Shown here in pieces: positions 20,347 to 46,300 of a DNA stretch of 50,711 bases. How positions within the stretch are numbered: the stretch's first letter is position 1; each line of letters starts with the position of its first letter. The notes beneath the pieces are model-generated. The model was given only the letters and a program-made list of their open reading frames with translations, was not told the origin of the DNA and did no database searches. Origin of the DNA: Psammoneis japonica (Eukaryota); assembly GCA_008632985.1 (NCBI GenBank), contig QPGO01000100.1:62001-112711 (forward strand). The letters run 5' to 3'. The translations under genes were made by a program, and so were the position numbers.

Positions 20347-20952
20347 TTGATGATGGAACCTGGCTTTTCTGATAGGAAAGGGGAGGGTATCTGTGAAGAA
20401 GGTGGCATCGACACACGTGACATTCGGGTTCGGTTTAACATCAACGAAGCGGAAGAGGACCGTCGTACTGAACGTGGAATCGAAGCTCGGCGGGAAAGGA
20501 AAGAGAACAAGAAGATGGCTGAACAGAATCGCGAGGGCCGCATCACGGCGACCTTGGCGATTATTCGAAGCAACGCTCGTTCAGCAAGTCTTGTGCGGTT
20601 GTGCCGTTCAGTACACCGTGTCGAAGTTCAACTCAATTTGTTTCTCGATGAGTTTGTTGGCCAGCACCAAACTATGAGACAACGGTTGGCTGCCTTTCGC
20701 GCCTTGTCACAGAACCAGTTCACAGACCTTACGCCAGAAATGGAAGTTTCTCTCATTGCGTTGCAAGGGGAGCCTTCTTTCTCCACGACGTTTTCTGCTT
20801 ATCTCCCATCTGCTGTTGTTACCTCTGAAGATTCGAACGAGGACAGCCCTACCCCTCGAGCAAGGCGTGCCAGAAGAAGGCGGCGCCGTCGGCAACGCCA
20901 ACAAACGCGACAAGATGCAGAGAACCAACGATGTGCTGCTCCGGAGTTTTGA
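20347..20952 (+). CDS. Hypothetical protein with charged N-terminal part and Arg-rich C-terminus
   Basis: ~200-codon ORF in CpG-rich, largely unmutated DNA downstream of a CAA-rich leader. No recognisable family. Confidence 0.4.
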   Translation: MMMEPGFSDRKGEGICEEGGIDTRDIRVRFNINEAEEDRRTERGIEARRERKENKKMAEQNREGRITATLAIIRSNARSASLVRLCRSVHRVEVQLNLFLDEFVGQHQTMRQRLAAFRALSQNQFTDLTPEMEVSLIALQGEPSFSTTFSAYLPSAVVTSEDSNEDSPTPRARRARRRRRRRQRQQTRQDAENQRCAAPEF

Positions 20953-22910
20953 GATCCTGCTTTTTCTGAATCAGCCGACCGGGTTCTTGTGTCCATGATG
21001 TTGGCTCCCTGCTTTTGTGGGTTGCAGTTACTCTTCCCAGACCGCAAAAAGGAGAGCGATTTCTCTTCTAATTCTTTCTTTAGCAATCAAATTCTTGATT
21101 TGTACAGTTTTTTATCATAAACGAGAAACGTTGATGAACTTCCTTTAGTATAATGTTCGTTGGATACGCTATAACCTAGAACTTAATTTAATTGGAAAGA
21201 TGAGCTACTAGCCAGGTTTCATGTTCTTGTTGACTGATCTTGGACTCTCTGTGCTTAGTCGACGTTCGAAAGTCATAAAACTAGAAGTCACCAACAACAA
21301 CAATCTGCGCTGCATCCCCTGCCATGACATGAACCATCAGGCTCAACGGCCATCCAGGTCACAACGGTCGATCGCGGTTGTCGGTCACGCCCGCGGCGCG
21401 CCTGCCACAAAATAAAAAATAAAAAGAGGTAAGCCACCACCACCTCCTGTCCTTCGTTCGCCGAAAGGCCCTACACATATATACACATACATTATCCCGG
21501 GAATACAACCCATGTTGTATTCCGTAGTATTTCTCCGTTGTATTCTACACATTGTACTGACCGTTACCCCACTTCAGCGACCGTATCTTCCGTGTTCTTG
21601 TGGAGGAAGCACGGGAATTTTTCCCGTGTCGAAACAACTGGGTTGTTGCATGGTACGTCGCGTTTTTGATAGATTTATGCAACAACACAACCGAGACCAT
21701 GCCGTCTAAAAAGTGTTACAAGCCAACCTTGATAGCACTCACGTTATTTCTTGGCGGGGTGACTTGTCAATGTGAACAAGACTTCACCAACCAGAGGCCA
21801 TTCAAACAACCCCCAACGATGTCGTGGTGGATGGGTCTAAAGGCGTATGGAACGCCCGAACCAGGCGACAACAGCTTGCCCATGCAAGCAAGGTCAAATT
21901 GGTTGGAACACTGGAGGAAGCCGATTTCCAGCTACATGTCAAACCGGTTGGTGCCGTGGAATGTTCTGTCAAATCAAGGCAACCCGACACGATCAACTGA
22001 CGTAAAAAACCCCGTGCCATGTTTAACATTCATATTTAATATTCTTGTTACATGTAGTGCGTGTCTAGGGCTTCATTCTTCCTTGTTCAATCCACAACAT
22101 CGCTGGAGCGCCCCTTCCAATTGAAGCATCATTTCTGTGCGCACGGCATCCAATAAATCCATCTGCACAGAATGGAATTTTGCACAACAAAACCAAGCCT
22201 CTTGGATTCCTTGTACAATTTCCATTGACAATGAAACAAGAATCGCGAAAATCGGCCCAAGGGATGTTGAGATGTCACCGCCACCAACTCTTTGCCATAA
22301 ATTCCAGTGGCAGCTCAATTTTGATCATTCAACGATGAGTTCCGAAGAGAAAGTCAGCACCACAAAAACCCAAGCCCCGTGGACACCTTACAGCACATGC
22401 GTCAAAATGATGACAAGAAGTGAGAAACAACGCCAAAGGTGCCACAGTGTGTCACAAAAATCCGTCATGTTGATGCTGCATTCTCACAATTTCTGCACTG
22501 CACCTTCAGCGACAAATCCGCCTCGACGGATTGAACTCAACGCCAGCACCACCAGCCCATCATGTCACTTGCACAAAAGCTCCGAGTGCTGCGAAAAGAA
22601 ATGGGAAAATGCGGCAAAAATGGACATGGACATCAGCGACGCAAGGGAGGCCATTGTCGCGATCGTTTTCTTTTTTGGTTGTCTTCGCAGCTGCGCATCT
22701 TGGATGGTGCTGCAGGTTGATGTAGCGGAAGTCGGTGTCTGTGCTTTCCTGGTGACCCTGTAGAAGAAGCACCAGACCCTGCGCAGTTGCACCCAGGGTT
22801 GTGTGTTCTTTCCGTCTGCCTCCACAGTGCACGGGTGCTCCACCGGGCAGCCAGCCGTGCCATGCCAAACACCAGCACTTTATGCCCCACAACAACAACA
22901 TGCAAGATGA

Positions 22911-23336
22911 GAGGGATTTGCCCAAGGATGCCCTCTCAGCCCTGTCTTCGCCAGCCTGGTCCTCTCTCTGGTTCTTTGTCTGATCAACCAAGAACTTCAA
23001 GAACGAATCCCTGGCCGTTCCTCTGTCTCAGTTGGCTCCCACATTGATGATGCTCGCGCTTTCCTTCCCCATTCCGCACTCCCATGCTTCCTTGAACGCT
23101 TCTCTGCCCTCGGCGCTCCCTGCGGGATCTCCCTCAACCTCCGTAAAACCAAAATCCTCACCTCCATCACAGGTGTTAGCCCCATCCCTGCTCTTCCCCC
23201 TTCTCGTGCCGATCCTCTCCGTGCTGCACTTTCCTTCTTAAACCCTGCCAATGACCCCTCCTGCAGCCCCGAACTCACCTCTGGTGTTCGCTTCCTTGGA
23301 CAGCCCCTTGGCTCCCACGACTTTGCCACCTCCTTC
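22911..23336 (+). mobile_element. CRE-clade non-LTR retrotransposon, RT fragment (5'-truncated, part 1)
   Basis: EGFAQGCPLSP, SHIDD (YxDD with TAC>CAC at 23040), GISLNLRKTKIL, GVRFLGQPLGS, all in one frame. Confidence 0.85.
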
Positions 23337-24522
23337 TACGGACGGAACAAACAGGTGTCAGACACCAGTTTCCTGGCATTTTTCTGCTAAAATGGTCACA
23401 TGGAAATTTCGCGCAATTTCAAAAAAAAGATGAGGTTGAATCGAAAAATGCAACAGACACTCACAAAAGTGCGACGCAACACGAGAAGCGACAATGGCGT
23501 CCACAAGGGGATGAAAACAACATCCACACTAATTTTGGGCATGCGCACATGACAACGTGAACGCACTTGATTTGAGGTGGTGCGGGTGCAAAAGTGGGCC
23601 AGATTCTACGCACGTAGAGCTTAGCATGTTTTCTGCACAAATCGCCAAAGTCGGCTCGCCAACTTGAACCCTCTCCAGGACGATGGAAACTTGGACATTT
23701 CACATGACAAAGTGTTTTGACTGCTGTGTTGCACTCTCCTCGACTTGTTTGGGGAGAGAAGTTACAAGTTTTCACAGGTTTCTGAGGACACACAACGAAT
23801 CTAATCAGAAAGGTGCCGAAATCGCGACGTTCGAGTTTTAAAGAGCCACACAAAACGAGAAACCCATGGAAACTTGCAACTTCTCTTCACAAACAAGTCG
23901 AGGGGAGTGTAATTGAGTGGTCCAAACACTTTGTCATGTGAAATGTCCAAGTTTCCATCGTCCTGGAGAGGGTTCAAGTTGGCGAGCCGACTTTGGCGAT
24001 TTGTGTAGAAAACATGCCAAGCTCTACGTGCGTAGAATCTGGCCCACTTTTGCACCCGCACCACCTGAATGACACACCATTTGGCTCACTCGTGCTTGTC
24101 TAAGTGCTCCAATCGACCATTCAAGATGACACCATTGTCATCAACATTCCGTACAGTTGCTGCGCGCAATTCACGTAGAAAATTGTAGAAACAGCTGGTG
24201 ACAACAACGCCCTGAATTCAGCTGCAACCCACATCCACGGTCGATGTGGGCACATGTCTGTGCTTGTCACTGACCAAACAACATGTGTGGTGCATTTGTT
24301 GCATGCAAATTGATCAATGGCATCACCGGTGGCACGCCATTGTCAGCATCGAATGCCGCACAAAAAGCACGGGGACGACAGAAATCGACTCTTCTGTCGC
24401 ATTTGTCTGTCTGTCACCCGTTTGTCTCGTAGAATCTACGTGAAAGTTCCCATGCTTTGCGTCTGTCCATGCTTCATCTGACACCTGTTTGTTCCTCTGA
24501 CAACCGTTTGTTCCACGCTCAG
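23337..24522. mobile_element. 1186-bp non-autonomous insertion with subterminal inverted repeats, 5-bp flanking direct repeat and central foldback (C)
   Basis: CCTTC at 23332-23336 and 24523-24527. A perfect 19-bp IR GGAACAAACAGGTGTCAGA lies at 23344-23362 and 24477-24495, with a degenerate extra copy at 24496-24514. Removing the insert restores the LINE frame (GSHDFATSF-LSDTSSALSDKVDMLLTRL). Confidence 0.85.
23575..24066. repeat. Long inverted repeat (foldback C): ~210-bp arms, ~75-bp loop
   Basis: 23575-23784 is the reverse complement of 23859-24066. Many of the mismatches are TA vs TG or CA vs TG. Confidence 0.92.
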
Positions 24523-24527
24523 CCTTC

Positions 24528-26300
24528 CTCTCCGACACTTCCTCTGCTCTCTCCGATAAAGTTGACATGCTTCTCACCCGTCTTCATGACAAACAAACCC
24601 AGGCTCAACTCTTCAAGCACTGTTTTGTTCCATCCTCTGCTCACCTCCTTGGGGCTGACTTTCACTGCAACTTCGACCCCGACAATCCTCCGACCCCTTT
24701 CTCTGGACCTCTCCATTTCAAGACTTCCTCCTCACCGTCACTCACTGCTTCCTTCACTTTGCCACTTCCTTCGCCGCTCCTTTTCCTGACCATTCTGTTG
24801 CCATCGCCTTCCTTCCTGCCTCCTTGGGCGGGTTTGGTCTCTGGGATCCAACAGCTGCTGCCATTCCTTCCTTCTTGGTGTCGCTTCTCCGCTTGTTCTG
24901 CTTTGCTTCGCACGGTGTCAGCCTGCCATCTGGCACTTCTGTTTCCCTTCTGCGCTGCTTTCGGCTCTCCCTGTCTTCCTGGTCCAACCCTCGCTCTTCC
25001 CTGCAACTCTGTGCACTCTTCCGCCGTTGTGCTCCCGTTCTGGCTTCCGCCTCTACCCTTTCCTCTTCTTCCTTGGCTGCCCTGGTTAAATTGGCCACTC
25101 TTCCTGGCCTGGCCCGTCGCCTCTGCCATGAACATCAGCAGCAAGCAGTTGCCTCCATCCTTGCTAACTCATCTTACGACGTGCAATCTTTGCTCCCGTC
25201 ATTGCTGTCTCCGCTTACAAGCCTCCCTCTTCATTCCTTCTCCCGTTGCTTCCCAAGCTCCTGCCTTTCTTCGGACGCCTGCGTTGTTGCCGCCCTTCGC
25301 AAACTTCGTCTCCCCATCCTTCCTCCGTCCCTTGTCAACACTCCCTGTCCCTGTGGCCATGCAATCCTGGATGCCTGTGGTGATCATGCCTTTTCTTGCC
25401 GCCGTGCTCACAAGTCCAAGCTCTCCAATGGTCTCCGTGACACTGTTTTCATCCTGGCTCAAACTTTGGGACCTCTTGCAGAGTTCTGTCAATCCCCGGA
25501 TGACGTTCATCTCAAACCCACCAACCTGCTCCCCACCCGCCCGCTCCTCCGTCCCGCCAATGTCGGCATTTCAATTCCCCCTCCCGCGTCCCTTTCCGCT
25601 CCCTCCCGCCATCACTACATTGCAGTGGATGTTGCCATCCCTCAAGCTTCTTCTTGCCCTCCTCCAGGTCTGCCTGCTCCTCTTCTCCCATTTTAACTGA
25701 GGCACACCACTCGAGCGCAAGATTGAAGTTCCTTGGCCCCTCTGCTTCCTCTGCTGATGGATCCCTTGTTGTTTCTTTGCTCAACAACGATGGCATCTTC
25801 CTGCCCCCCTTCACTGTAGATCACCTTGGTGGTCTTGGCTGCTTTGCTCACCGCTTGCTCTTTGGTCCTGCGTCCTCCTCCAACTGCTCTCAGCCCAAGC
25901 CGCCCTGGTCCTCTTCCTCTGACTTTCGTCACTCCGATGCCTCCTGCTCCGCCTTTCTCCATGCTTTGTCATCTCCGTCTGCAATCCTTCCATCCGCTGA
26001 CTTCACATGGCGTGGCCTGTCCGCCGATTGCTTTGGGAGCGAGCACCTGCCATGCGGCCACCCCATCCCAGTGGGCCACCCAAACTCTTGGCTGCAACGT
26101 CGTTCTTCACCTTTCTACGCACATCCTCTGATTCACTTCCTCTCTCCCTGCTCCCTCCTCACCCATGCCTTCCTCTAAACGCCCTTCGTCTTGCGTCCTT
26201 TGGCCCTTCCACTCTGCCGTCTCTACACCTGCCTCCGTGCCTCCCTCTGCTGTTCCCTTCCACTCTGCATGGGCTCCCTTGATCTTCCATTTGCAAGTGG
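24528..26300 (+). mobile_element. CRE-clade non-LTR retrotransposon, part 2: thumb, CCHC knuckle and restriction-like endonuclease (frameshifted)
   Basis: LHDKQTQAQLFKHC..HLL, GGFGL, CPCGHAILDACGDHAFSC, KLSNGLRD, RPAN (RPAD with CG>CA at 25558), IAVDV, PFTVDHLGGLG. Strongly pyrimidine-rich sense strand. Confidence 0.85.
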
Positions 26301-29900: not shown

Positions 29901-32399
29901 TCCTTTTCCAGCAACTCTGAGTCACCCACCAACATGGCAGCACCATTGTCATTGTTAGCGCTTCTCTCTTCCAAGACATGCTTTGTTGTTGCACGTGCCA
30001 ATGTTGCAAGCTCCAAGATGCTCAGATTTGTTGAGTGCTCTTCATGGCCACCTCCAGCACTCCCCACAATGCTTGTTGGATGATGGTCAACAAATGCACC
30101 TCATGGTGCCAATGCTCATGCTGTGACAATTCTTTTTCCCTTTTGTCACCCACCTCTTTTGCAGGCTTCTGGAAAAGCTGCGGGGCTTCTCCCTTCCAGA
30201 AGACTCCACAACTCCACCATCTTCTTCTCAAGCTTCCAAGGATTCTTAAAAATTTCACCGATGAGCCCAAGAGACCATCTGGCTCAGCCAAAAAGTTGAG
30301 ATGCAGCTTTGCCCAACTGCTTCTTTGCTGCCATCAAGATGAAGCAGCGCTGGACACATGCGGGGCTGCAGCAGTGCCTGTCTGGCAAACTGTGCTCACA
30401 AGACATCTGTCGCAACTCTCTCAATGCTGCATGTGTGCACACTGGCCAAACAACTGCCTTGCCTTGGGGCATGCTGCGCCCTCCACAAAAAGCATCAGCT
30501 GCAGAAACCACTTCAGCTGGCACTCATGTGGTGTTGCTGCAATGACAGGAGATGCTGTTGCAGCTGAAGGAAGGCAGCCGGCCAAAGGAGCTCCTGTCAG
30601 CTCTTTTGCAGCCAAGAGTGCTGGCTGCAGCATGATCTTCCTTAAAGTGGTGTGGAGTGAATCCATCTCATGTCATGAGATCCAGCACAATTTCCTGCAT
30701 CATGATGACATCTTCTTCCTCAGCTGTTGGTTTGTCCAGCACACGAGAGTGCTCCTCCAGAGGAACGCAGATTCAGGCAACTCTTTTGAAATGTTGTTGA
30801 GTTGCTCAGCAGCAATGATTTTGCACTTTCTCATGTGTTCACACAGACAGGATTCACCCTTGCCAAGTTGACCCTGTGCCAATGTGCTTCTCCCCAGGGT
30901 GGTTGAGAGGGCACCCTGCTTTTTGGTCTTTGTTGGCAACATCTGCAAAGGTTGTCATGGCAGTGATGAGCAATTTTGAGACATCTGCTTTGTGAGTTGA
31001 CACAACTTTGAGAAGAGAAGCATCATGAACAATGTCCTTTGAAACAAAACTTCACCAGCAACATCCTTCATTGGCCTGGGAAGCACCTCCAACACCATCA
31101 TTTTCAAACCAACAGGGTTTGACAATGTCACATTGTTTGTTGGTTGCCAGAAAACCACCAGGCACATGCACATTTGAAGTTCACATGCAACATCACCCAT
31201 TGGTGCACCATGAGTGACAGACAGTGCAGTGGGGTGAAACAGCTTTTTGCAGGCACAGGAAATGACAGGGCTCTCAGAGATGGAGCGGCAAGTTGTTTGT
31301 GCAGTTTGGAGGAGCAGCGCCTGAGTTGGTTGGTGAGTGCTTTGGTGACAGCAAGGCTGAAGCTTTGCAAGCTCCATTGTGCAGGGGTGGCAGCATGGTG
31401 GGTGAGGCCAAATTGGGCAGAAGTGGCATTGGACCAGGCAGCTGTGGTGGCAGGGATCAGGCCAGATGGAGATGGGAAGCTGCTTGCCCTGGAGTTGGGT
31501 CAGAGATGACATCATCATGGCAGACAGATCTGTTTTGCCCTCGAGTCGGTCGCGTGAAAAAACTGGAAGACCCGCAACACAAGCACTCGTTGACGCTCGA
31601 GGAAGCTGTCGCGTTGAATGGTTTGATGAGTGGAAAACTGAAGAAACAGCTCAAAGTGATGTCCGAGCAACAGCAAGACATTGGAAAAGCCATTGCTCTG
31701 CTTGAATCTTTGTGGCTACTTCCACCTTGTCACCGCGAAAGTTCTGGCAACGTCGTAGTGTTTTCTGTGCCACCGTAGTGTAGAGAAAGCCAGTGAAGCA
31801 AAAACTTGAATGAAACTTGAGTTCCTCCTACTAGGACGCACCGATACGTCGTAGGTTGCATTGCGTGAGGCGCTTCGGCTCCGCCGCCAGCTTAAGTTTG
31901 GTGTTTGCTCAATAGTTGTTGCGATGCAATTTACTCTACTTTGCGAGATGTTTTTTTTTGTTTCGCACAATTTCACCCGCTTCCAGCTTTCTCTCCAACA
32001 GTGCGATGGTGTTTCATCCACTGCTTTTTTCATTGATCTCGAATTCATGTTTGGTATTTTCTGGTTGGTGAGCTTGTTACGAGAGCGATAGAAGCCCAAG
32101 TTAGCTAGTTTCGTCTCAGGTTGAGTCAGTATGCCCATTACCTCTCTACATAGGGTTATTTATGTGTAGTACAGCGGGTCGAGTAAACAAACCGCCGACG
32201 GACCAACTCAAACAATTCGCTCATTGAGGCCATGGCAATTTCACAACTCATGCTACCGTACTCGTCTTTGACCGGTGTTCACTTTTCGTCGCCGAGAGGA
32301 ATGGGATATAACGACCTTTTTAAGATATACACGTGCGTAGCAATCTGAGAGCAAATTCTAGACGTTGGCGGAAATCATGCACTTTTCATTGGCCAGAGA

Positions 32400-33469
32400 C
32401 TAGAGCATGTCGCCGATTTTCATCACAAGCTTGCCTCTGGTGTGTCCACTGGCTAGCATGTCGAGAATTCCTCCATCGCTCAATGCTTGTTTCCAGTCTT
32501 CCGATCCGGCCAATGCATCCAAATCAGGAGAAAGCGGCGCTGATATTCTCGCGTCACTCACAATGTGTTGAAGCAAATCTTCAATCTCCGCCGCGGGCTG
32601 CACAAATTCAAAGTTGTTCGAAAACTGTTAAAGACAGTTTGGGTGGTGACCGTCGCGCCCTTGAAAAAGACAAAACTCAAGTCCAAGCTCTCGATTGCTT
32701 CGCCAGCCACAACCAAGCAAATAGAGCCGTAGGGTCGAATCACTTTGGACAACATGCCAAACAGTTCTTGTGTCGGCTCTGCTAGGCACAAGATGTAATC
32801 CACGCTTCCCTCACGACCACCCCTGAGATTCAGTGTAATTTCGTTGTGTTGAATGACTTGCGACGCTCCCATCTTGGGACACCATTGTCGGGATGCTCCC
32901 GTCGAAGCGGTACAGATAATTTTGAGACTTGGATACAAAACTCGTGCCAGCTGTGTCGCCCATGATCCCACACCTCCGGCTCCACCCACAATTAACAGGG
33001 TGGGATCTGTACCTCGAAGCGGTGCGTTATTGCCTAGACCTAGTTTCAACAGCGCTTCATAAGCTGTACAACCACTCAATGGAACGGTAGCCGCGTCCTT
33101 TAGCGAGATTTCAAAGGGCACTGGCGCCACTGAACGTGAATCCACAAGCACATGAGTCGCATGCGCTCCCGAACGGGATGGATCACACAGAAACGCAACA
33201 CGCTTTCCGTTATTGTAGTCTCCCGATACATTTGCACCCGTCGCTTCAATGACTCCTGATCCTCCATACCCAACAATTACTGGTCCACCGGGCACGGCTT
33301 GTCCCTCTTTTGGACCGCCCGATAGCTTGTGCAAGTCCACTGGATTCAGTTCGGCGTATGCAACCTTGATGAGAACATCGTTGGGGCGGCATTCCGGCAG
33401 CTCATCCATGGAGTCCCAGTCCAACACCTTCGAGTGTGGACCATACTGCGTTGCTCCGAGAAATTCCAT
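32400..33469 (-). CDS. MDR-superfamily NAD(P)H quinone-oxidoreductase-like protein, with one frameshift near 32615
   Basis: DVLIKVAYAELNPVD, GYGGSGVIEATG, AATVPLSGCTAYEAL, LIVGGAGGVGS. The C-terminus (ASGHTRGKLVMKI) continues in another frame from about 32615. Confidence 0.85.
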
Positions 33470-33774
33470 GCTATAATAAGGCTGCTTGGGAGAGAATAAT
33501 AATGTTGTTGCAGAAATAAGCATACGGTACATGCTCGATACTCGCTTCAAAATAAATGCGTGTCAGGAAACATGAAAAAGATCTCACACAAAAAAGATCT
33601 TTGATGGAATCTCCTGCGGAAGTGCATGACCTTGTATGCGGTGCATAACTGTTTTTGATCCTCGTGTTTGAAGAGTGTACATAAAGAAACCAATTATTGT
33701 TGTCAGTGCATGCGTGCTGGAGTGTTCGCACCAGCAGCCGCCGCACTCGCCCCTGCAGGGATGGTGAGGGAGTC

Positions 33775-34180
33775 CAGCGACAAAGTTTGCACCCCCCAGG
33801 AACGCAAGGGAAACAAGTACGGTAGTTTGTTTCGTATGGTCAGCAGAACCACAGCGATAAAGTTTGCAGTACCCCATGAACCTCGACTGCAGGAAAGCAA
33901 TTGCGCGGAGGAACCACCGCGAAAAAGTTTGTAGCCCCCAAGGAACCTCCACGAGAAAGTTTGTAGCCCCCCAGGAACGCAATCGCGAGAAGTTTCTGTA
34001 GCGTCAGGAATAACAATGGAAAACTTTGTAACCCACAGGAACCCCCGCGCTATATTTGTATCCCCGGGGAACCCCGGCGAGAAAGTTTGTAGCCCCCCAG
34101 GAACGCAACAGCGAGAAGTACAGCGTCACCGGAATCACAATGGAGAACTTTGTATCCCCCCAGGAACCCCCGCGAGAATA
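33775..34180. repeat. Degenerate minisatellite, ~9 units, consensus GCGAGAAAGTTTGTAGCCCCCCAGGAAC
   Basis: Unit cores near 33782, 33858, 33924, 33956, 34021, 34052, 34082 and 34145. Higher-order duplication of ~33952-34050 at ~34077-34175. Confidence 0.8.
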
Positions 34181-35926: not shown

Positions 35927-36607
35927 CTACCTCTGCGCAGAAGCAAGTCCGGCACTCACCAGGGGCAACGTTAGATCATCCATATTCGGAAGCCGCCCCT
36001 TTTCAAGCTTGGAAAAGACAAGGTTTCCATCCAATTCAACCTCAAAGGCTCCACTAATCACAAAGCTTTGTAGAACTTGCGGTAAAATCAAAAAGAAAAG
36101 AATACCGAGCTGCATCCCGTATTCTTTCGCCTTGAACCAAATCTCGGGAGGGTTCATTTTCAACAGACTCCACAACTTATCACCCATGAGTAGACCTGCA
36201 AGAAAGAACAGTTGAATTGCCGCCAACACCTTCAACAGGACACCCACCGTGGGTGGCGGAGGATAATTCTCTCCCGAAACGTGTCCGCGTAATTCGGGGA
36301 AGGAAGCTTCGAGGAACTCTCTCACCCGGAGATAGTTCCTCTGCATACCTCAGCTAGCACAGTACTGAATATGAACTGAACGAAACTCCGGTACGGCTTC
36401 TGCTTTTACGTCGTTCTGGTCAAACTCGGACTTGGCGCAGCAGTTATTCGTCACAAAAACACGGTGTGAGTGTAGGGGTCGAATTATGACGTTTGAAATA
36501 CAGAATCACGGCCTCTATTCTCCTACCTCGGCGTTTATTGATATTGAAAGAAGAGCAAGACCCAATAAAAGCCATGCTAGCTTTTGCAACGGCCGTCGCT
36601 TCATCAT
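35927..36607 (-). CDS. SELENOT: Selenoprotein T (Rdx family), 2 exons, in-frame UGA-Sec
   Basis: Exon 1 36607-36527 encodes a signal peptide, intron 36526-36431 is GT..AG, and exon 2 reads VHIQYCASUG (TGA at 36352-36350), GENYPPP, SGAFEV, FSKLEKGRLP. A SECIS lies downstream. Confidence 0.92.
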
Positions 36608-37206: not shown

Positions 37207-37796
37207 TTATTGTGGCAAATACCGATTCACAATGTGCGGCGCAATCAGCAAGAGGAAAATCCCAATTTGAATGCCGCCCTGCTTGGCAGTCCACCAAAAA
37301 TCGGGTGGGTTCTTTATCATGAATAGGTTCCAAACACCGTCGCCCAAAAAGCATGCAGCAACAAAGAATAGTTGTGTGAACCATAAGGCATATCGTACCG
37401 TCATGGTCCAGAATGCTCGGCTTTGCAACAGCCTCACCAGTCGTCGCCCATAATCCTCAAGTACTTTCATAATATCATCTGTGCCAAACTCTTGCTTTGC
37501 TTCATCAGCCGGAGGATTCTGTTCATGCGCCATGTTCACTTGGTTGTCATCTGGCTTTGCTCGCCGCTCGGTTACGGTTTCTGTGACTGCGTCGGGGTCC
37601 TTATGCACACAGAGAAATGGCACAGTAAGAAATGCACACGCTTGTAGGCGTCAACGATGTCAATCACGCATACTCTCGGGGACGCAGCAACGAAACATAC
37701 CTCTGCTTTTGCAACAGGAACAATTGTGAAGGAAAGCAAGAAACTAACTCCAATTATCAGCCACAATGCTGCTGCGATACGTGATAGTCCCTTCAT
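37207..37796 (-). CDS. Truncated SelT paralog retaining the signal peptide and hydrophobic segment only (~162 aa, 2 exons)
   Basis: Exon 1 37796-37701 ends ..AE followed by GT, intron 37700-37600. QLFFVAACFLGDGVWNLFMIKNPPDFWWTAKQGGIQIGIFLLLIAP aligns with SelT QLFFLAGLLMGDKLWSLLKMNPPEIWFKAKEYGMQLGILFFLILP. Confidence 0.8.
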
Positions 37797-40028
37797 GTTC
37801 TTTTGTGGTTTGTGTTGCTCTTATAGTTGGAGCTGTGTCTTTATGACATCATGGCCGACGACGATGCATGACGCCGACCCGCCCAGACGCGAGGCGCGAT
37901 GACCGAAAGTCTCTGCACGTAGCATACATACCAACTCCTACGGTACGTTACATAGGATTGCAACGAGTGGCGTTTTAAGTCGTGCATGGGACTCGAATCT
38001 GCTGTCCGTCTATCTGTGGAATGGCTTCCGCCAGCACCACAATGTCCTTGCTTTCCAAAACTGGAGTGTGTTGTCACTTACCTCTTTTTGTGCACCAGTC
38101 TGTTTCAGCACACTGACTGTTTTGGGCACGTCCCACAGTGTGAAATCTTCAAAGTCAAAGTTGTTTGCGCTTTGAAGCCCCAGCCACCTGTGCACTCTCT
38201 TGTGCACAAACCAATTTCGTGGCTCCCGCCATGTTTGCAGGTGCAGCTCTCAGCTGCAGAACAAAGCCAAAACAGCGTCTCTTTTGTTTGCACATGTTTT
38301 GTCAAAAAAGAAGACCTGCCACTGCAGCACACCCCCAGACAAAAGCACAAGCTGGTGCTCTTCTCATGCATCATGTGTGATCCCCTCCATTTTTGTTGCT
38401 CTTCAGCTGAGCATCACAGCTTGCCAAACAAGGGTTGTTGAAGTTGGGGGCAAACTTCTGTTTGTCCTTTTGAGTGAACAAATTGATGAAACTTTCCACT
38501 GTGCAAGCATTGTTTGTTGGTGGAAATCAGCAAAACCCACAAATTTGGCAGCAGTTTGTTGGCTTGCGCAAAAAGAGTTTTTTCCAATGGCCACAGCAAC
38601 AATGCTTGTGCCAACAGACATGTGGAAGGAACTTCACATGCACTGTGCTGCACACAGAATTCTGTGTGGAATGATGCACATTTTTTGCACCATGGCAGTG
38701 CGTGTGTGTTTTTCAAGAGAATGTCTTGACTTTGCAGCTGCGAAGGTGCCGAGCCAATCGACGGCGCAAGAAAGTGGGCATGACGTCATGCGCCATGAAG
38801 AGAATGGCAAATTGCAGAGCATTCATTGCCAAAATGGACCTGCCACATTCAAAAGATTTTGTGAGTCATGAAATCAGCATGCACCCAAGGCTGCTGAAGC
38901 ACAAATCTGCACAACACAGAAGCGGGGGGCGCCATTTGGGCGCCAGCTCAGAAGTGGCTGGTCAACAGGTTGTGCATGTGTTGAGCACTTTCAGTGCAGG
39001 AGGTTAAAACATGCCCAGCAGAAGAGGGTGCAAAAGTGTTTCACTTCACAATGTTTGTCATGTTGGAAAATTTGCTTCTCATCAAAACAAAACCCAAGCC
39101 CCAGCACATTTGAAGGTGCGCGGCTGGAGACACTTCCACCCTGCAACTCCGGCAACAAGCTGGCCCACACCCCCAGCACACTGATGTGCAGCAAGAGCCT
39201 GCATGAAACATTTCATGCAATGCATCCCATTCTAGAGCCAAGGTGTTCGGAATGTGATGCCGCTGAAAGAGCGCCGACTCAGCGCCGAAAAAAGACATCT
39301 TTTCATCAGACAAAGGAGAGGCAGTGTGGGATGAAAGTCAGAAACGGCAAAGTTTGCTTCTCATTGAGAAAATGACCCCATTAAAATGTGCACAGGGCAC
39401 TTGAATTTCTGACTCTGGTGTTTGAGGCAAACGCATTTGAGTGCGCTCTGACAAAAGCCAGGTGCTGGAGCACGCCATGACCACAGCACATTTGAGCTGG
39501 TTTTGCAACATGTCTTTCTGACATCTTAACTGGCAACTAAAATCCAGATGATGGTTGTGGTGTGCCAGCAGCAAGCATTTGGTGAGGATCTCCGTTGCAG
39601 TTGTGGGTGAGGTGCAAGGCTTTGGCACCAAGTGGCACCTCTCGAATGAAGCAGGCCGACTTTCATGCTGCCGCGCAAGTGCAAGATCTTGCAAATGTCT
39701 GATGTGCGTTCATGACCCAGTGCATGAGTGACGAATCTCTTCGACAAGACTGCCTTTAAACAACTGTTTCATTTCGTCACGATCCACTCTGTTGACCACA
39801 TAGCCTGGCATCCAATGACCCTGTCGAACAGACAGGATGATGTCAACTTGCTCTCTACAGCACTAGCTAGAGAGGGTCCTGTGTCACAGGCACATGATGA
39901 CTTCACTCACGAACTTGTGTGCCCGCCACGATCCAAAATTCTTGTGGTGCACGGAACAAATAAATCACACTCCTTGGCAATGTACATGATTTCGAAACAT
40001 CACCTCGAACGTGCTCGATAAAAGAAAA

Positions 40029-42046
40029 ATGAAGCTGTCTACTTCTTTCGCAGTGCTGGCGATTGCTGGAACAGCTCGAGCCTCGTCCATCAAGATGGAT
40101 TTTCTTCACATGGCTCACGTCAGAACCGACCCAATCATTTCTCCAGGAGACCTCTCGGATCATGTCCATGCATTTTATGGAGCCACGGAAGTCAGGCCAG
40201 AGACCACCTACGAAGATCTGCGCAATGCTCATGGAAACAGTGGCAACGTCGAGGAGAACAAGAGTCTGTGCTGGCATCCGACGATCTACAAAGTAGACTC
40301 GAGAACAGGAGTCAAGACGATTGCAAACATGTGCGTGGGAAGTGGTGAGTGCCCATTTTGTAAACGAAATGCCACCATGCAATCCGACCTTGCAAGTCAT
40401 GCTCAGTTGCCTGTCATTTTAGCACACTGCATTTGGACTCCTGGAGAAGCTAAGGCTTTCCCAGACGGTTTCAAGATGGTTGCCTTCGCGGAGGAAACCG
40501 TCGATTTCTTCCCAAATGAACCGGAAGATGAACTTGAAACCGAGATTTGGTTCCCTGGCAAGCAATTTCACTGATTCTCATGGTTCCCACTCACTGTCTT
40601 TTGTTTCTTACGCACCCTTGCTTTCCTGAAGATTGCTGGGATTGCAAAAATGTTGATTCATCCGATCACATTAGTCATGTTGCATGCTCCTCGAATCGGG
40701 ACGTTACCGGCATTTGCCCTGAATCGCATCCGTGCAAAATCCCAAAGATTGAGTTTTTCGCAAGGGTTTCTCCGCACGAAGGAGGTCCTCATGTCTTTTC
40801 GGATGGCTCCACCAGGTTGCATGCAGACTGCTTCTCTGGATGGCAAGTGCATCAACCGTTTTTGCTTTCGACGAATTCAAGAACTCGTCTCATCTGACAG
40901 CTTGTTCTGTCGTGATTTTCTTGCCAGGAATGAAACGTTTCTCCAGGGGGTCTTGGACAACTGCAACAATCCTTCGTTTGAATCTGCTCCAGACTTTTGG
41001 TGCGAAGACTTCTTGACTTTTCGTGACACTCCCAAGCAGTTCAGTGAATGCGAGACTCTAAATTCGTTCAAAGCAAAACTTGAGCCTTGTCAACCTAATC
41101 CGATTGATGCCTCGACGATCACAACCGAGGCATCAATGATGTTGTAGACCTCCCAAGAGGTGAAGGCATGGGCCTGTTGCTCCCTCGCCAGCCCGGGCTG
41201 CCTGCAACTCTCCCCCCTGCTCCTAGGATTTCTTCGGCCGATGCAATGGAAAATTGCGATGAAGACGGAGGTGAAGAGGATTCCGAGGCCGAGAACACCG
41301 AGGAGGGAGGGTCTGATGACGGAGAAGGCTCCGAAGAGGCGTCAGAGGCCGAGCCTTTGTCAGGCGGAGGATCAGAGGAAGAAGAAGGATCTGATGATGG
41401 AGAGGGCTCCGACGAGGCTTCAGAAGGTGAGGGTTCGTCTGGCGGGGCATCAGAGGAGGGAGGATCTGATGACGGGGAAGGCTCCGAAGAGGCGTCAGAG
41501 GCCGAGGCTTTGTCAGGCGGAGGATCAGAGGAAGAAGAAGGATCTGTCGACGGAGAGGGCTCCGACGAGGCTTCAGAAGGTGAGGGTTCGTCTGGCGGGG
41601 TGTCAGAGGAGGGAGGATCTGATGACGGAGAAGGCTCCGAAGAAGCGTCAGAGGCCGAGCCTTTGTCAGGTGGAGGATCAGAGGAAGAAGAAGGATCCGA
41701 TGACGGAGAGGGTTCCGAAGAGGCTTCAGAAGGCGAGGGTTCGTCAGGTGGGGCATCAGATGAGGAAGACGGATCTGATGACGGAGAGGGCTCCGAAGAC
41801 GCGTCGGAAGGCGAGGGTCCATCAGGATCTGGTTCCCAGCTAGAGTCTGATGTGGCATCAGAAGAAGAGTCAGAGGGCGAGGGCTCCTCAGGCGGAGGAT
41901 CAGAGGAAGCATCCGGCATTTGTGAATCATCCGGCACTATGAGTCCTTCGAAGCATCAGCGTCTTACGAATCGTCCGGTTCGGAAGGAGTGCACTCCGAA
42001 GAGGAGGACAGCGTTGACAACGTTTTTGACCTCGAACGCAAGCTGA
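40029..42046 (+). pseudogene. Secreted DUF1996-domain gene with acidic Gly/Ser/Glu repeat tail, disrupted by TpA mutation
   Basis: Signal peptide, RTDPIISPGDLSDHVHAFYG, ENKSL(C)WHP, FPDCWD, DHISHVA(C), HAD(C)FSGW, FLQGVLDNC. Introns 40345-40422, 40558-40631 and 40843-40927 (the last two start GCAAG). Frameshift near 41130. Confidence 0.82.
41290..41915 (+). repeat. Coding tandem repeat, 153-bp (51-aa) higher-order unit built of 25/26-aa subunits
   Basis: EEGGSDDGEGSEEASEAEPLSGGGS-EEEEGSDDGEGSDEASEGEGSSGGAS occurs about 3 times plus degenerate copies. Confidence 0.9.
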
Positions 42047-43341
42047 CGAAGTCTTTGCGTGGTTCCTTTCCAGAAAAGCCGAATCACAACAAAGCCATCC
42101 ATGCCATGCAGGCTCTGTGTCTCCACCAATGCATTTTTCTTGATCAAGTGGTTCTGCTTCATACACAATTTTTTTAACCTCTCAGTGATTGTCTTGAGCA
42201 AAACTCGCCGAATCATTGATTTTTCTCGACACTGTTTCGGTTGTTAGTTTCCTTGGCTTGTAAAAATCATCGCCATGCGGAAACATTCCATCACATCATT
42301 TCTCTGTCTTTCTCTAAAATCTTGTTTGATTGATTCGCGGTTCTGAAACGATCAGGTCAACTTCGACAAGGTCGAAGGTCGTTCACTTCAACATTTCTGC
42401 GACACGCTCTCTCATCTCCAAAATGAAACCGGTTTGCACACGAAAGCTCTCGGAATGACTCTCGCGGCGAATGCGTGAAAATGTTGCACCATGCGCAGCT
42501 GGATCCAAGAATGGCTTTGCTCTTTCTAGAGCGCATCTTTCCACGCTTTTCCTTTTAGCTCGTTGGCTGGTTCTACAAAAGCTCAGATGCTTTCGTTCAG
42601 AATCCGTTACAACTGACAACATCGGTCCATGTCGTGGCGATCTCCCTGCGATTGTCGCACACTTGGAGCTCGTTTCTGTCATCCTCACAGTTCCAGAACC
42701 CCACACGACGGAATTCATAACAAGTTCATTCAGGATAATATGCATCTCATCCGTCGTTTTTCAAGTAGGATGCAGACCCCATCGACCCACATGTTGCTGC
42801 TTGCTGCAGATTGAAACAAAGATTCGTTCCGGCGTTTTCATCCGTCTTGATTTTCTTTTGCCATGGGTCCTCTCTGGATATCCAAAAAGTCCCTTTCTCA
42901 ATCCATTTGCTGTGTCTTCTTCGAGGGGCCTTGGTTTGGTTGCCTTAAACACTACCTGTAAGATCAATTTGTAATTCACACATCACCGCGGCTATTTTCG
43001 AGCGACCGCGGTGCGGGAACGCGCATCATCGCGCGATGGATCTTCCAAAGATATACATCCGGGTGTCCCAGCGCAGAACTTTCTCATCGCGACGCGCTTG
43101 GTTCGTCATTATGTGCTGCCGACGATGGGACTGCAAGTTTGCGACGGCTAGAGTAGACGCTGAACGCATAGCGAAAGGGAAAGCTATACGCCTACTAGGG
43201 CTCTTGCTGTCTTGATACTGACTGTACAGTAGACCCACTTTCTACGTGGATGATATCATAAAACAGTGCCGGTAGATTCTCTGCATCAAACGCGTTGATT
43301 GTTGATTGTTCAGGTTCTTCAAGCACAGGCAGACAACGACA

Positions 43342-44552: not shown

Positions 44553-46099
44553 GGTTTGATAACTTTATCTGGTTTTCAACAATTGGACTCGGTGTATGAG
44601 TCCTGCCTTACGTGTTTCACATAATTTCAAAGAATGACTCGAGATCGAGCATCAATAGCGTCTATTTACATCAACTAGTGCAGTACTCTAACTTCCCCAG
44701 AATCTAGTGGGAGTGACAAGCGCAGTATTGCGGAGCACGCGATCTATGATAGCTCGTGAAATTTAAATTGGCACGACCAAAGACGAATCCCCAGCGAACG
44801 CCATCCTTAGGGCAAACAGTCTAAGTTGGACTCCGCTGCACTCTGATGTTTCTCGCTTCAAATGAACAGAAAGTAATAATCATTCGCTCGTTGCCATCTA
44901 CGACTTGATCACCATGTTCTCTACAACTTGGTTGGGATTTCGCATCATCCACTCCTCGCGCAACCCACCCTCCGTTTCAGCTGTTTGTTTCATTTTCAAG
45001 AGTCTGTGACGGTTGTCCATCAGCAGACGATTCACATAGCCAACCACCAAGGTACGTTCCATTTCCGGCGGAATGGAAGCTCGTCCATGCAAGACTCGCC
45101 AATTGTTGGTGACCAGCTTGTGTGTTCGGGCCACGCAAAGGACTTGACAAACTTGGTTTCGTCCTCACACAGGTTGATCCACAAATGGCATGCATCCACA
45201 ATGGCATCGTACTCCTCAAACGCAAAGGCTGAGACACCTCGCTTGGATTCACTTTGAATGATGCGTTCAATCAGATCCGTTTCCTTGTTGAGATCAGCAA
45301 TGGGATGGGTATGAACCAACTCAAAGTGGAACGAATTGCCAGCCGTACTCATGTCACTCAAGTCTCGCGGCTGACCCGATCGTGTGCCCCAAGCATGTTA
45401 TCTATCGCGCGCAACCGTTCGAGCGAAAAAAAAGTTGAACGGCCCACGCGGGCGCAGAATTTTTTTCAATTTTGCGTGCATCGGAAGGCAAAATCTGCCT
45501 CCATGACGGTCATTTGCCGTCTCTTTCGCTTTTTTAGATGGTTTGAAGCCGATAAACCAAGCAATATCGTTGGCGCTTGATCTGAAGAACACTATAGGCG
45601 CTTCAAATAAACAAATACATCCACTAGAAGCTTTTTAATCCATTCAACACACGCTTGAAAAGGGTGAATCGACACGGCGCATTGCGCATCATGGTCGAAC
45701 ATTGCACTACTTGCCTTCGACTTAATCGTATCTATTCGCCGTATATAACATGGAGAAGGTATGTAAAAATATGTTTGGTTGTTGTAGTGAACCAACGACT
45801 TGCATTCCTGATTTTTGTGCGAGTGGGTGCCGAGCTGAACACATCATTTTCAACAGTTCCATCCCATGTTTACAGGCAAATGGTGCGGCAAAGACCGTGT
45901 CAACTGTGATTTGCAATGCACGCTTGACGAATACATAGAATCCAAAATGCGGAAGCATTGTGTGTCCCATTTGGACCGCATCACGTCGGTGTGGATGTTG
46001 GATGGAACTTGAGTGCAACCACGATGACGTCGGACGAGTCGTCGAGTGGCGGTGCGTCCAGAACAAAATGAATGAGGCGGCTGACGTTGGAGCCATGCC

Positions 46100-46300
46100 G
46101 GCAGTGGCTCAATGGTTGCTCGTTCTTGCATTGACAGAATGAACCCGAAGCCGCCGATGAATGTGCCGAGCAGGCGACAACGACATCTTGGAGGCATGGT
46201 TGTGGGAATGTTTTCGAGTGTGCCTTCTGACGCTCCCACCTCGGGCACCTGAGATGAACCCAATTGAGCTGCTGTGGAATTGTCCGGTGGAGTGTCTTTC
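46100..46300 (+). mobile_element. IS630/Tc1-like transposase fragment
   Basis: ILEAWLWECFRVCLLTLPPRAPEMNPIELLWN matches the LPxxSPELNPIExxW catalytic-Glu motif. Confidence 0.75.

Follow-up and report, generated by a model that had tools for sequence, protein, structure and literature searches.

How does a host gene come to carry cysteine or histidine at near-invariant tyrosine positions, and GC in place of GT at two of its three splice donors, while its CpG dinucleotides stay undecayed? The question is raised by a DUF1996 gene of the diatom Psammoneis japonica, which occupies positions 40029-42046 of a 50,711-nt stretch of DNA (assembly GCA_008632985.1, contig QPGO01000100.1, positions 62,001-112,711, forward strand). 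This whole stretch is called the window below, and all coordinates are window positions. It is nuclear DNA of diatom type in which gene islands alternate with blocks from which the dinucleotide TpA (TA) has been nearly erased. Around the gene TA is low over 4.4 kb, from 38080 to ~42520, a domain that adjoins such a fully erased block. We consider it probable that a host gene has here been caught in a domain targeted by a TpA-specific A:T to G:C mutation process.

The open reading frames (ORFs) of the stretch match DUF1996 (PF09362) with 57.3 bits over profile positions 1-100 and 45.3 bits over positions 150-237, against a cut-off of 27. Of 814 candidates from a word-indexed search, 86 were relatives, with 53% identity for the closest database protein, and 340 proteins reached E ≤ 0.001 in an exhaustive search. 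The relatives that are named by source are all diatoms (Seminavis robusta, Thalassiosira exigua and the MMETSP diatom transcriptomes). On these sequence matches the gene is assigned to a host family that is widespread in diatoms. Together with its spliceosomal introns, this bears out the suggestion of the initial annotation that the TpA change can strike genes other than transposable elements. The DUF1996 signature has been described as a head with D-x4-P and H-x-H, the motifs CP and S-x-YW-x-P, and a tail H-x-D-x3-GW (PMC4738358). The spliced model has the head and tail signatures (DPIISP, HVH, CP, HADCFSGW) and reads S-L-C-W-H-P at S-x-YW-x-P, a motif whose Tyr column is Tyr in 137 of 138 homologs. 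Judged by these motifs, the gene is a mutated DUF1996 member and not a member of a different family. As far as they are described, the vacuolar proteins Vlp1-3 of the fungus Beauveria bassiana (PMC4738358) belong to the same Pfam family and have the head, CP and tail signatures in common with the window gene; unlike them, the window gene has Cys for the Tyr of S-x-YW-x-P, and its diatom relatives have a linker and an acidic tail in addition. A search by sequence found no relative of solved structure. The AlphaFold model of one homolog (P0003; mean predicted local distance difference test score 76) gave no Foldseek match at E ≤ 0.001 and a best Z of 2.5 in VIA-align, results that do not show the fold to be new.

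The exon junctions agree with the tblastn alignments of six homologs, and the gene is made up of the following parts.

40029-40344, plus strand: exon 1, with a signal-peptide-like start and the DUF1996 head; Tyr kept at residues 50, 61 and 87; Tyr81 changed to Cys.
40345-40422, plus strand: intron 1, 78 nt, GTGAGT...TAG; a 26-residue gap falls exactly there in six of six homologs.
40423-40557, plus strand: exon 2; Tyr107 changed to His and Tyr108 to Cys.
40558-40631, plus strand: intron 2, 74 nt, with the GC donor GCAAGC followed by AATT; homologs require the junction FP|DCW.
40632-40842, plus strand: exon 3; Gly155 changed to Cys, Tyr169 to Cys, Tyr199 to His and Tyr217 to Cys; tail signature H-x-D-x3-GW present.
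40843-40927, plus strand: intron 3, 85 nt, with the GC donor GCAAGT and no TA; homologs require GW|NET.
40928-41147, plus strand: exon 4, up to an in-frame TAG at 41145-41147, with the frame break near 41130.
41132-42046, plus strand: continuation in a shifted frame (ORF 41108-42046), comprising, like the closest homologs, a linker and an acidic tail of Ser/Glu/Gly/Asp.
41300-41826, plus strand: tandem repeat in the tail, 3.3 copies of a 153-bp unit (41300-41805), also scored as 6.7 copies of a 78-bp unit.

By chance intron 1 contains no in-frame stop, which joins exons 1 and 2 into a single 194-aa ORF, and gene callers could miss the intron. To reach 42046 a frame change is needed between 41129 and 41132, where the homologs are continuous in tblastn; four of them (P0002, P0003, P0004 and P0006) match 41132-41317 in the other frame and have acidic tails. 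The frame is apparently broken near 41130 through one missing base, a break that the initial annotation had left unmentioned. Further on, in 41915-42180, the ORF 41108-42046 turns basic and non-acidic past the acidic tail, and it is the frame 41926-42177 that goes on rich in Ser and Glu, with two Tyr codons kept; the frame may break a second time near 41935.

Cys or His at family-typical Tyr positions had been read from the sequence by the initial annotation, and the reading held at every one of them. Six of these columns are near-invariant: residues 81 (TGC, 40269), 107 (CAC, 40425), 108 (TGC, 40428), 169 (TGC, 40685), 199 (CAC, 40775) and 217 (TGC, 40829). In this order, Tyr was found in 70/70, 70/70, 69/70, 66/70, 70/70 and 69/69 sequences of a 70-homolog alignment, and in 137, 138, 137, 121, 126 and 112 of a set of 138 homologs of at least 250 aa each. 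All six changes are single steps from TAC to TGC or CAC, that is, TA to TG or TA to CA. Over nine Tyr columns the window gene has Cys or His at six, compared with one at most in every one of the 138 homologs. Homologs sharing the Cys/His set, which would speak against mutation of this copy, were looked for among the 138 and none was found. When all positions conserved in at least 90% of homologs were considered, Tyr had changed at 6 of 8 and other residues at 3 of 80 (Fisher p=4e-6), the remaining 77 being kept. One of the 3 is in the CWDG motif, where a G to T change, not of the TpA type, has put Cys in place of Gly155, a residue that is Gly in 70/70 and 128/138 homologs. Two further Tyr look lost in comparison with the six closest homologs in tblastn, at residues 68 (His) and 102 (Cys).

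The Tyr codons at residues 50, 61 and 87 all lie inside the first 261 nt, in agreement with the remark that the first ~300 bp still have TAT/TAC codons. The gradient along the gene that had been derived from it is weak: the kept codons rank 1, 2 and 4 of the nine, which is matched or beaten by 2 of 84 orderings, but TA observed/expected ratios (o/e) per 250 bp show no trend. With Y for a pyrimidine and R for a purine, the kept codons are YTAY in 3/3 cases and the lost ones RTAY in 4/6 (Fisher p=0.17), so that sequence context may explain the apparent gradient.

The donors of introns 1 to 3 read GTGAGT, GCAAGC (40558) and GCAAGT (40843). Both GC donors had been reported by the initial annotation, and both were found at conserved junctions without a GT alternative: in tblastn the homologs read FP|DCWDG over intron 2 and GW followed by N/D-E over intron 3, and no GT donor yields these junctions. 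Most likely two GTAAG donors were turned into GCAAG, and both C's of GCAAGC fit a TpA to CpA change from an inferred GTAAGTAATT. As a general figure, used here for illustration, about 1% of introns are of the GC-AG type.

The sample covers the stretch in three coded public runs, all as contigs and none recorded as RNA. A second version of the gene is represented by two contigs of run X1, with 5 letters different from the window over 39896-40220 and 12 over 40271-41088. As had been proposed, differences of the TA type were counted against others: among the 13 differing positions listed, between 39675 and 40429, which amount to 10 sites, 7 sites are of the TA type.

40020: TA in the window, TG in the other version.
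40051: CA in the window, TA in the other version.
40169/70: TG in the window, CA in the other version.
40400/01: TG in the window, CA in the other version.
40404: CA in the window, TA in the other version.
40425/26: CA in the window, TG in the other version; the Tyr107 codon, His in the window and Cys in the other version.
40429: TG in the window, TA in the other version; Tyr108 kept in the other version.

The other three listed sites are one of the CpG type and two others. Codons 107 and 108 of the other version are TGC and TAC. In the host-gene part only 3 of 26 listed sites are of the TA type and there is no TG-versus-CA doublet (Fisher p=0.0013 against the gene). Such a doublet would result from two independent hits, on opposite strands, at one ancestral TA. 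The doublets between the versions thus mean that both were hit independently, and the different outcomes at the same ancestral TA mean that the process ran after the versions had split. It may still be running.

A doublet of the same kind is seen within the array, where copies 1 and 3 of the 153-bp unit have CA and copy 2 has TG (41448-41449 versus 41601-41602, unit columns 148-149), giving Ala versus Val. An ancestral TA hit once the unit had been duplicated leaves such a trace.

Two sequences exist in the sample elsewhere in the window too, since over 32084-33480 the X1 and X2 contigs differ from it at 12 and 3 letters. A protein search for the second version with the exon-3 ORF (40538-40897), among proteins of similar lengths, gave 2 candidates, none of which scored. 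X1 depth was not taken as a measure of copy number, and the X2 contigs leave 37871-41260 uncovered, which has no bearing on whether the gene is silent. Run X2, guessed to be DNA, looks transcript-derived: its contigs skip 36430|36527 and 37598|37700, and the intron-like stretches (36431-36526 and 37600-37700) have minus-strand GT..AG ends and look like host-gene introns with GTA donors.

Base composition places the gene inside a bounded domain. With TA expected at the host-level o/e of 0.69, the exons hold 11 TA against 39.8 expected (o/e 0.19), the introns 3 against 11.4, and the tail 3 against 22.1, a count that the amino-acid bias of the tail alone would lower. Five host ORFs of the window have TA o/e 0.48-0.63. 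The parts of the domain outside the gene are as follows.

38080-39004, no strand assigned: erased block, TA 0 against 43.1 expected, CG o/e 0.32, TG 1.81, CA 1.95.
39005-40028, no strand assigned: upstream flank and promoter region, TA 13 against 46.7 (o/e 0.19), CG o/e 0.54, half decayed.
42047-42520, no strand assigned: 3' flank and right-hand end of the domain, TA 5 against 24.8 (o/e 0.14), CG o/e 1.09.

At the left edge of the domain, ~38050, TA o/e falls from 0.91 to 0.14 at ~38000, and the edge of the erased block itself is sharp at 38011/38079. At the right edge, between 42500 and 43000, TA o/e rises from 0.11 to 0.41 (42501-43000) and to 1.08 from 43001. Between these limits successive parts over 3.5 kb have TA o/e of 0.19, 0.19, 0.09 and 0.14, a flat course with a sharp end. 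The 5' flank has clearly raised TG (1.82) and CA (1.52). Since the introns and both flanks are also TA-poor, the change was made in place on DNA.

CpG has not followed TA in the gene. The initial annotation had found it still abundant, and the exon CpG o/e of 0.86 is indeed within the range of host ORFs (0.80-1.13), so that TpA loss and CpG decay are distinct in target, timing or both. Over the whole window the two ratios are correlated (Spearman 0.82): gene islands have TA o/e 0.55-0.87 with CpG ~1, and erased blocks have TA o/e 0.01-0.09 and CpG o/e 0.10-0.33 with TG and CA at ~1.7-2.3. Among 100 segments of 500 bp, 42 are low in both, 15 are low in TA with normal CpG, and none is normal in TA with low CpG. 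The view that TpA loss is separable from CpG decay is upheld by these counts. The further view that it comes first fits them without being shown by them, because tracts low in TA with normal CpG may never be methylated.

The letters around the TAs that survive point to a sequence preference. YTAR accounts for 30/44 survivors (68%) in erased blocks, 29/70 (41%) in partly erased tracts and 136/751 (18%) in host DNA, and RTAY for 1/44 (2%), 3/70 (4%) and 240/751 (32%), respectively. These contexts mean that the A of T-A is lost fastest with C or T on its 3' side, a rule we abbreviate as T-A-Y. In 40029-42520, 10 of 23 surviving TAs are YTAR and 1 is RTAY. All three TG-versus-CA doublets between the versions are at RTAY sites, as the rule predicts. 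A purine stands before both codons that went from Tyr to His, and where a pyrimidine stands before a lost Tyr codon, as it does twice, the outcome was Cys. Applied to G|GTAAG, the rule makes the A of the lower strand the preferred one, and the outcome is GCAAG as seen at both GC donors; position six of GCAAGC, where an A comes next, is consistent with it too.

The process that we propose would change the A of T-A to G on either strand (TA to TG or TA to CA), in place on chromosomal DNA and inside a bounded domain, and would act fastest where the A precedes C or T. In the gene it would be ~70% complete, having turned at least six invariant TAC Tyr codons into TGC or CAC and thinned TA in introns and flanks alike with CpG undecayed. 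The same process would have stripped nearly all TA from the repeat-like blocks of the window, the left end of the domain being old and the gene having been reached later or changed more slowly. By analogy with a proposal made for Bigelowiella natans, taken up below, the chemistry would be adenine deamination and the targets silent chromatin. The gene copy is most likely dead or dying, in view of the Tyr and donor changes, the Gly to Cys change in CWDG and the frame break near 41130. A wider proposal, to which we give an even chance, is that this diatom currently has an active mutator of DNA adenines that prefers T-A-Y and works in place on the chromosome. Chromatin domains, and not homology, would be its targets, and host genes falling into them would be destroyed allele by allele. 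If so, the process would be, beyond transposon defence, a standing source of gene loss, of Tyr to Cys/His recoding and of GC-AG introns.

Several points weigh against this account of the gene. Some host ORFs match or exceed the exons in TG and CA o/e (1.28 and 1.23 for the exons), and 2 of 10 directed events (40020 and 40404) break the T-A-Y rule. The GT state of the ancestral donors is itself a reconstruction. The frame break could be an assembly error. The adjoining erased block is not identifiable as a transposon by protein searches: its ORFs (38080-39004) gave no Pfam match, and the 231-aa ORF 38176-38868 gave no protein relative (69 candidates, none scored). The counts for the second version cover the listed differences, with 96 difference rows and 27 indel rows beyond them; for the contig over 40271-41088, 6 of 12 differences are listed, and those in 40430-41088, the donors and the position near 41130 fall outside. 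The X1 contigs could represent an allele or a very recent duplicate, which are indistinguishable here.

Low TA is also met elsewhere in the window. At two rims of erased blocks, 31501-31750 and 2001-2250, TA o/e is 0.06 and 0.25 with CpG at 0.88 and 1.08, so that TpA loss extends ~250 bp beyond CpG decay. The tract 22250-26250 (TA o/e ~0.18, CpG o/e ~0.69) is low in TA with CpG kept; at 22911-23387 it matches reverse transcriptase weakly, with 22.4 bits where the cut-off is 29.6, it has a strong strand-composition skew at 24000-26000, and it looks like a younger element erased at TpA and not yet at CpG. Short tracts at 20501-21000, 45001-45500 and 46001-46250 have TA o/e 0-0.26 with normal CpG inside host-like DNA, and their ORFs gave no Pfam match. 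The DUF1996 stretch itself sits between two gene islands, identified with Pfam, the left one with ADH-like, PsbQ and Rdx genes and the right one with a rhomboid and a DUF716 gene. Close to the DUF1996 gene on its upstream side, the 56-bp piece 39133-39188 matches 17010-16956 at 82%, the sole match of erased block and flank elsewhere in the window; X1 depth has a spike of 3086 at 39131-39184 with loose ends on both sides, and the piece has the look of part of a repeat present in very many copies.

The gene might have been picked by homology and not by position, through its 153-bp internal repeat or a paralog elsewhere, as in repeat-induced point mutation (RIP); the initial annotation had entertained both attractions. 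The gene does hold the largest tandem array of the window, the doublet between repeat copies records hits after duplication, and paralogs are plausible as DUF1996 has several members in diatoms. Nevertheless, the low-TA domain begins at 38080, 3.2 kb upstream of the array, where it is continuous with the fully erased block, and it extends ~700 bp past the array without a peak there. The rims of other erased blocks are likewise low in TA with normal CpG, and a 32-bp array of 6.5 copies at 33909-34117 sits in TA-normal DNA. A search of the window found no paralog in it and the internal array as the sole duplication, and the closest database protein is 53% identical. Homology targeting is for these reasons unlikely, and we prefer a process directed at a domain.

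Is the gene still working, with its Tyr changes tolerated, its GC-AG introns spliced and its frame break an error of assembly? GC-AG introns that start with GCAAG are spliceable by the major spliceosome, 77 of the 80 other conserved residues and the head and tail signatures are kept, and the frame break rests on the assembly. Against this, six near-invariant Tyr and Gly155 are lost, two of three donors are non-canonical, and the base missing near 41130 is outside any homopolymer. The second version has also lost Tyr107, through a different change. We regard an intact function as quite improbable, in favour of a copy damaged by TpA mutation.

Editing of RNA, followed by reverse transcription and re-insertion, could produce similar substitutions, since A to G chemistry with a 5' T/U preference resembles that of adenosine deaminases acting on RNA (A to I, 5' U preference), a comparison found in the Discussion of 10.64898/2026.01.13.699255. 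Three introns of the gene are still in place where the homologs call for junctions, TA is as scarce in the introns, on the promoter side and in the 3' flank as in the exons, and the strands were hit about equally (6 TG and 7 CA directed events tallied in the window copy), all of which makes this origin very improbable. A sequencing or assembly artefact, or an ordinary codon or dinucleotide bias, might be thought of with 73 N in the window and TA under-represented in most genomes, and is scarcely credible when independent X1 contigs repeat the TA-poor sequence (553 nt, 39155-39707, one difference), TG-versus-CA doublets are not an error type, host ORFs of the same window have the far higher TA ratios given above and invariant residues are altered.

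If TpA mutation within a domain is preferred to these alternatives, transposons are not its sole casualties and host genes can be ruined too. Exons, introns and flanks were hit alike, which argues for mutation of DNA in place over edited RNA copies. The T-A-Y preference predicts which residues and splice sites fall and offers a fingerprint for finding the enzyme. The locus is a natural assay, with Tyr codons and GTA donors as reporters.

Among known systems, RIP leakage resembles the locus in its layout. In Leptosphaeria maculans, AvrLm6 and its neighbours, single-copy genes beside repeats, are affected (PMC2973834), and there as here, according to that report, a single-copy gene is damaged beside a heavily mutated repeat and alleles differ in load. 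RIP is a fungal process that changes C to T mostly at CpA, makes DNA AT-rich and is linked with the sexual cycle and with duplicated DNA. The chemistry in the window is the opposite, A:T to G:C at TpA, as polarised by the homologs and the TG/CA doublets. In L. maculans the effect is described as falling with distance from the repeat, whereas TA o/e in the window is flat over 3.5 kb and the Tyr codons that are kept sit on the side closest to the erased block. Deamination of 5-methylcytosine (CpG decay) also yields TpG and CpA, and in the window's older blocks it accompanies TpA loss; unlike TpA loss, it is absent from the gene.

A literature search found no diatom report of TpA-restricted hypermutation, and the only precedent it found is a preprint on Bigelowiella natans (Mettrop et al., bioRxiv 10.64898/2026.01.13.699255). 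In mutation-accumulation lines of B. natans, 230 of 231 mutations in hypermutable regions were A to G or T to C, all at TpA (210 of 211 in a region of nucleocytoplasmic large DNA virus (NCLDV) origin and 20 of 20 in a virophage region), the per-generation rate being raised ~1000-fold. The larger target is transcriptionally silent, and an adenine deaminase was proposed, not shown (10.64898/2026.01.13.699255). Common to B. natans, as far as the account goes, and to the window are the A to G and T to C changes at TpA giving TpG and CpA, the local confinement and the low TpA. The two differ in lineage, a chlorarachniophyte there and a diatom here, and in target, which is integrated giant-virus and virophage DNA in B. 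natans and a host-family gene with introns in the window. They differ in extent too, with TA o/e 0.45 in the NCLDV region of B. natans and 0.01-0.07 in the blocks of the window. A T-A-Y preference for the 3' neighbour was found in the window, and none was met in the available part of the B. natans account. What is new at this locus is that an intron-bearing host gene was hit, that CpG was retained, that GC donors were a likely product and that two versions were hit independently.

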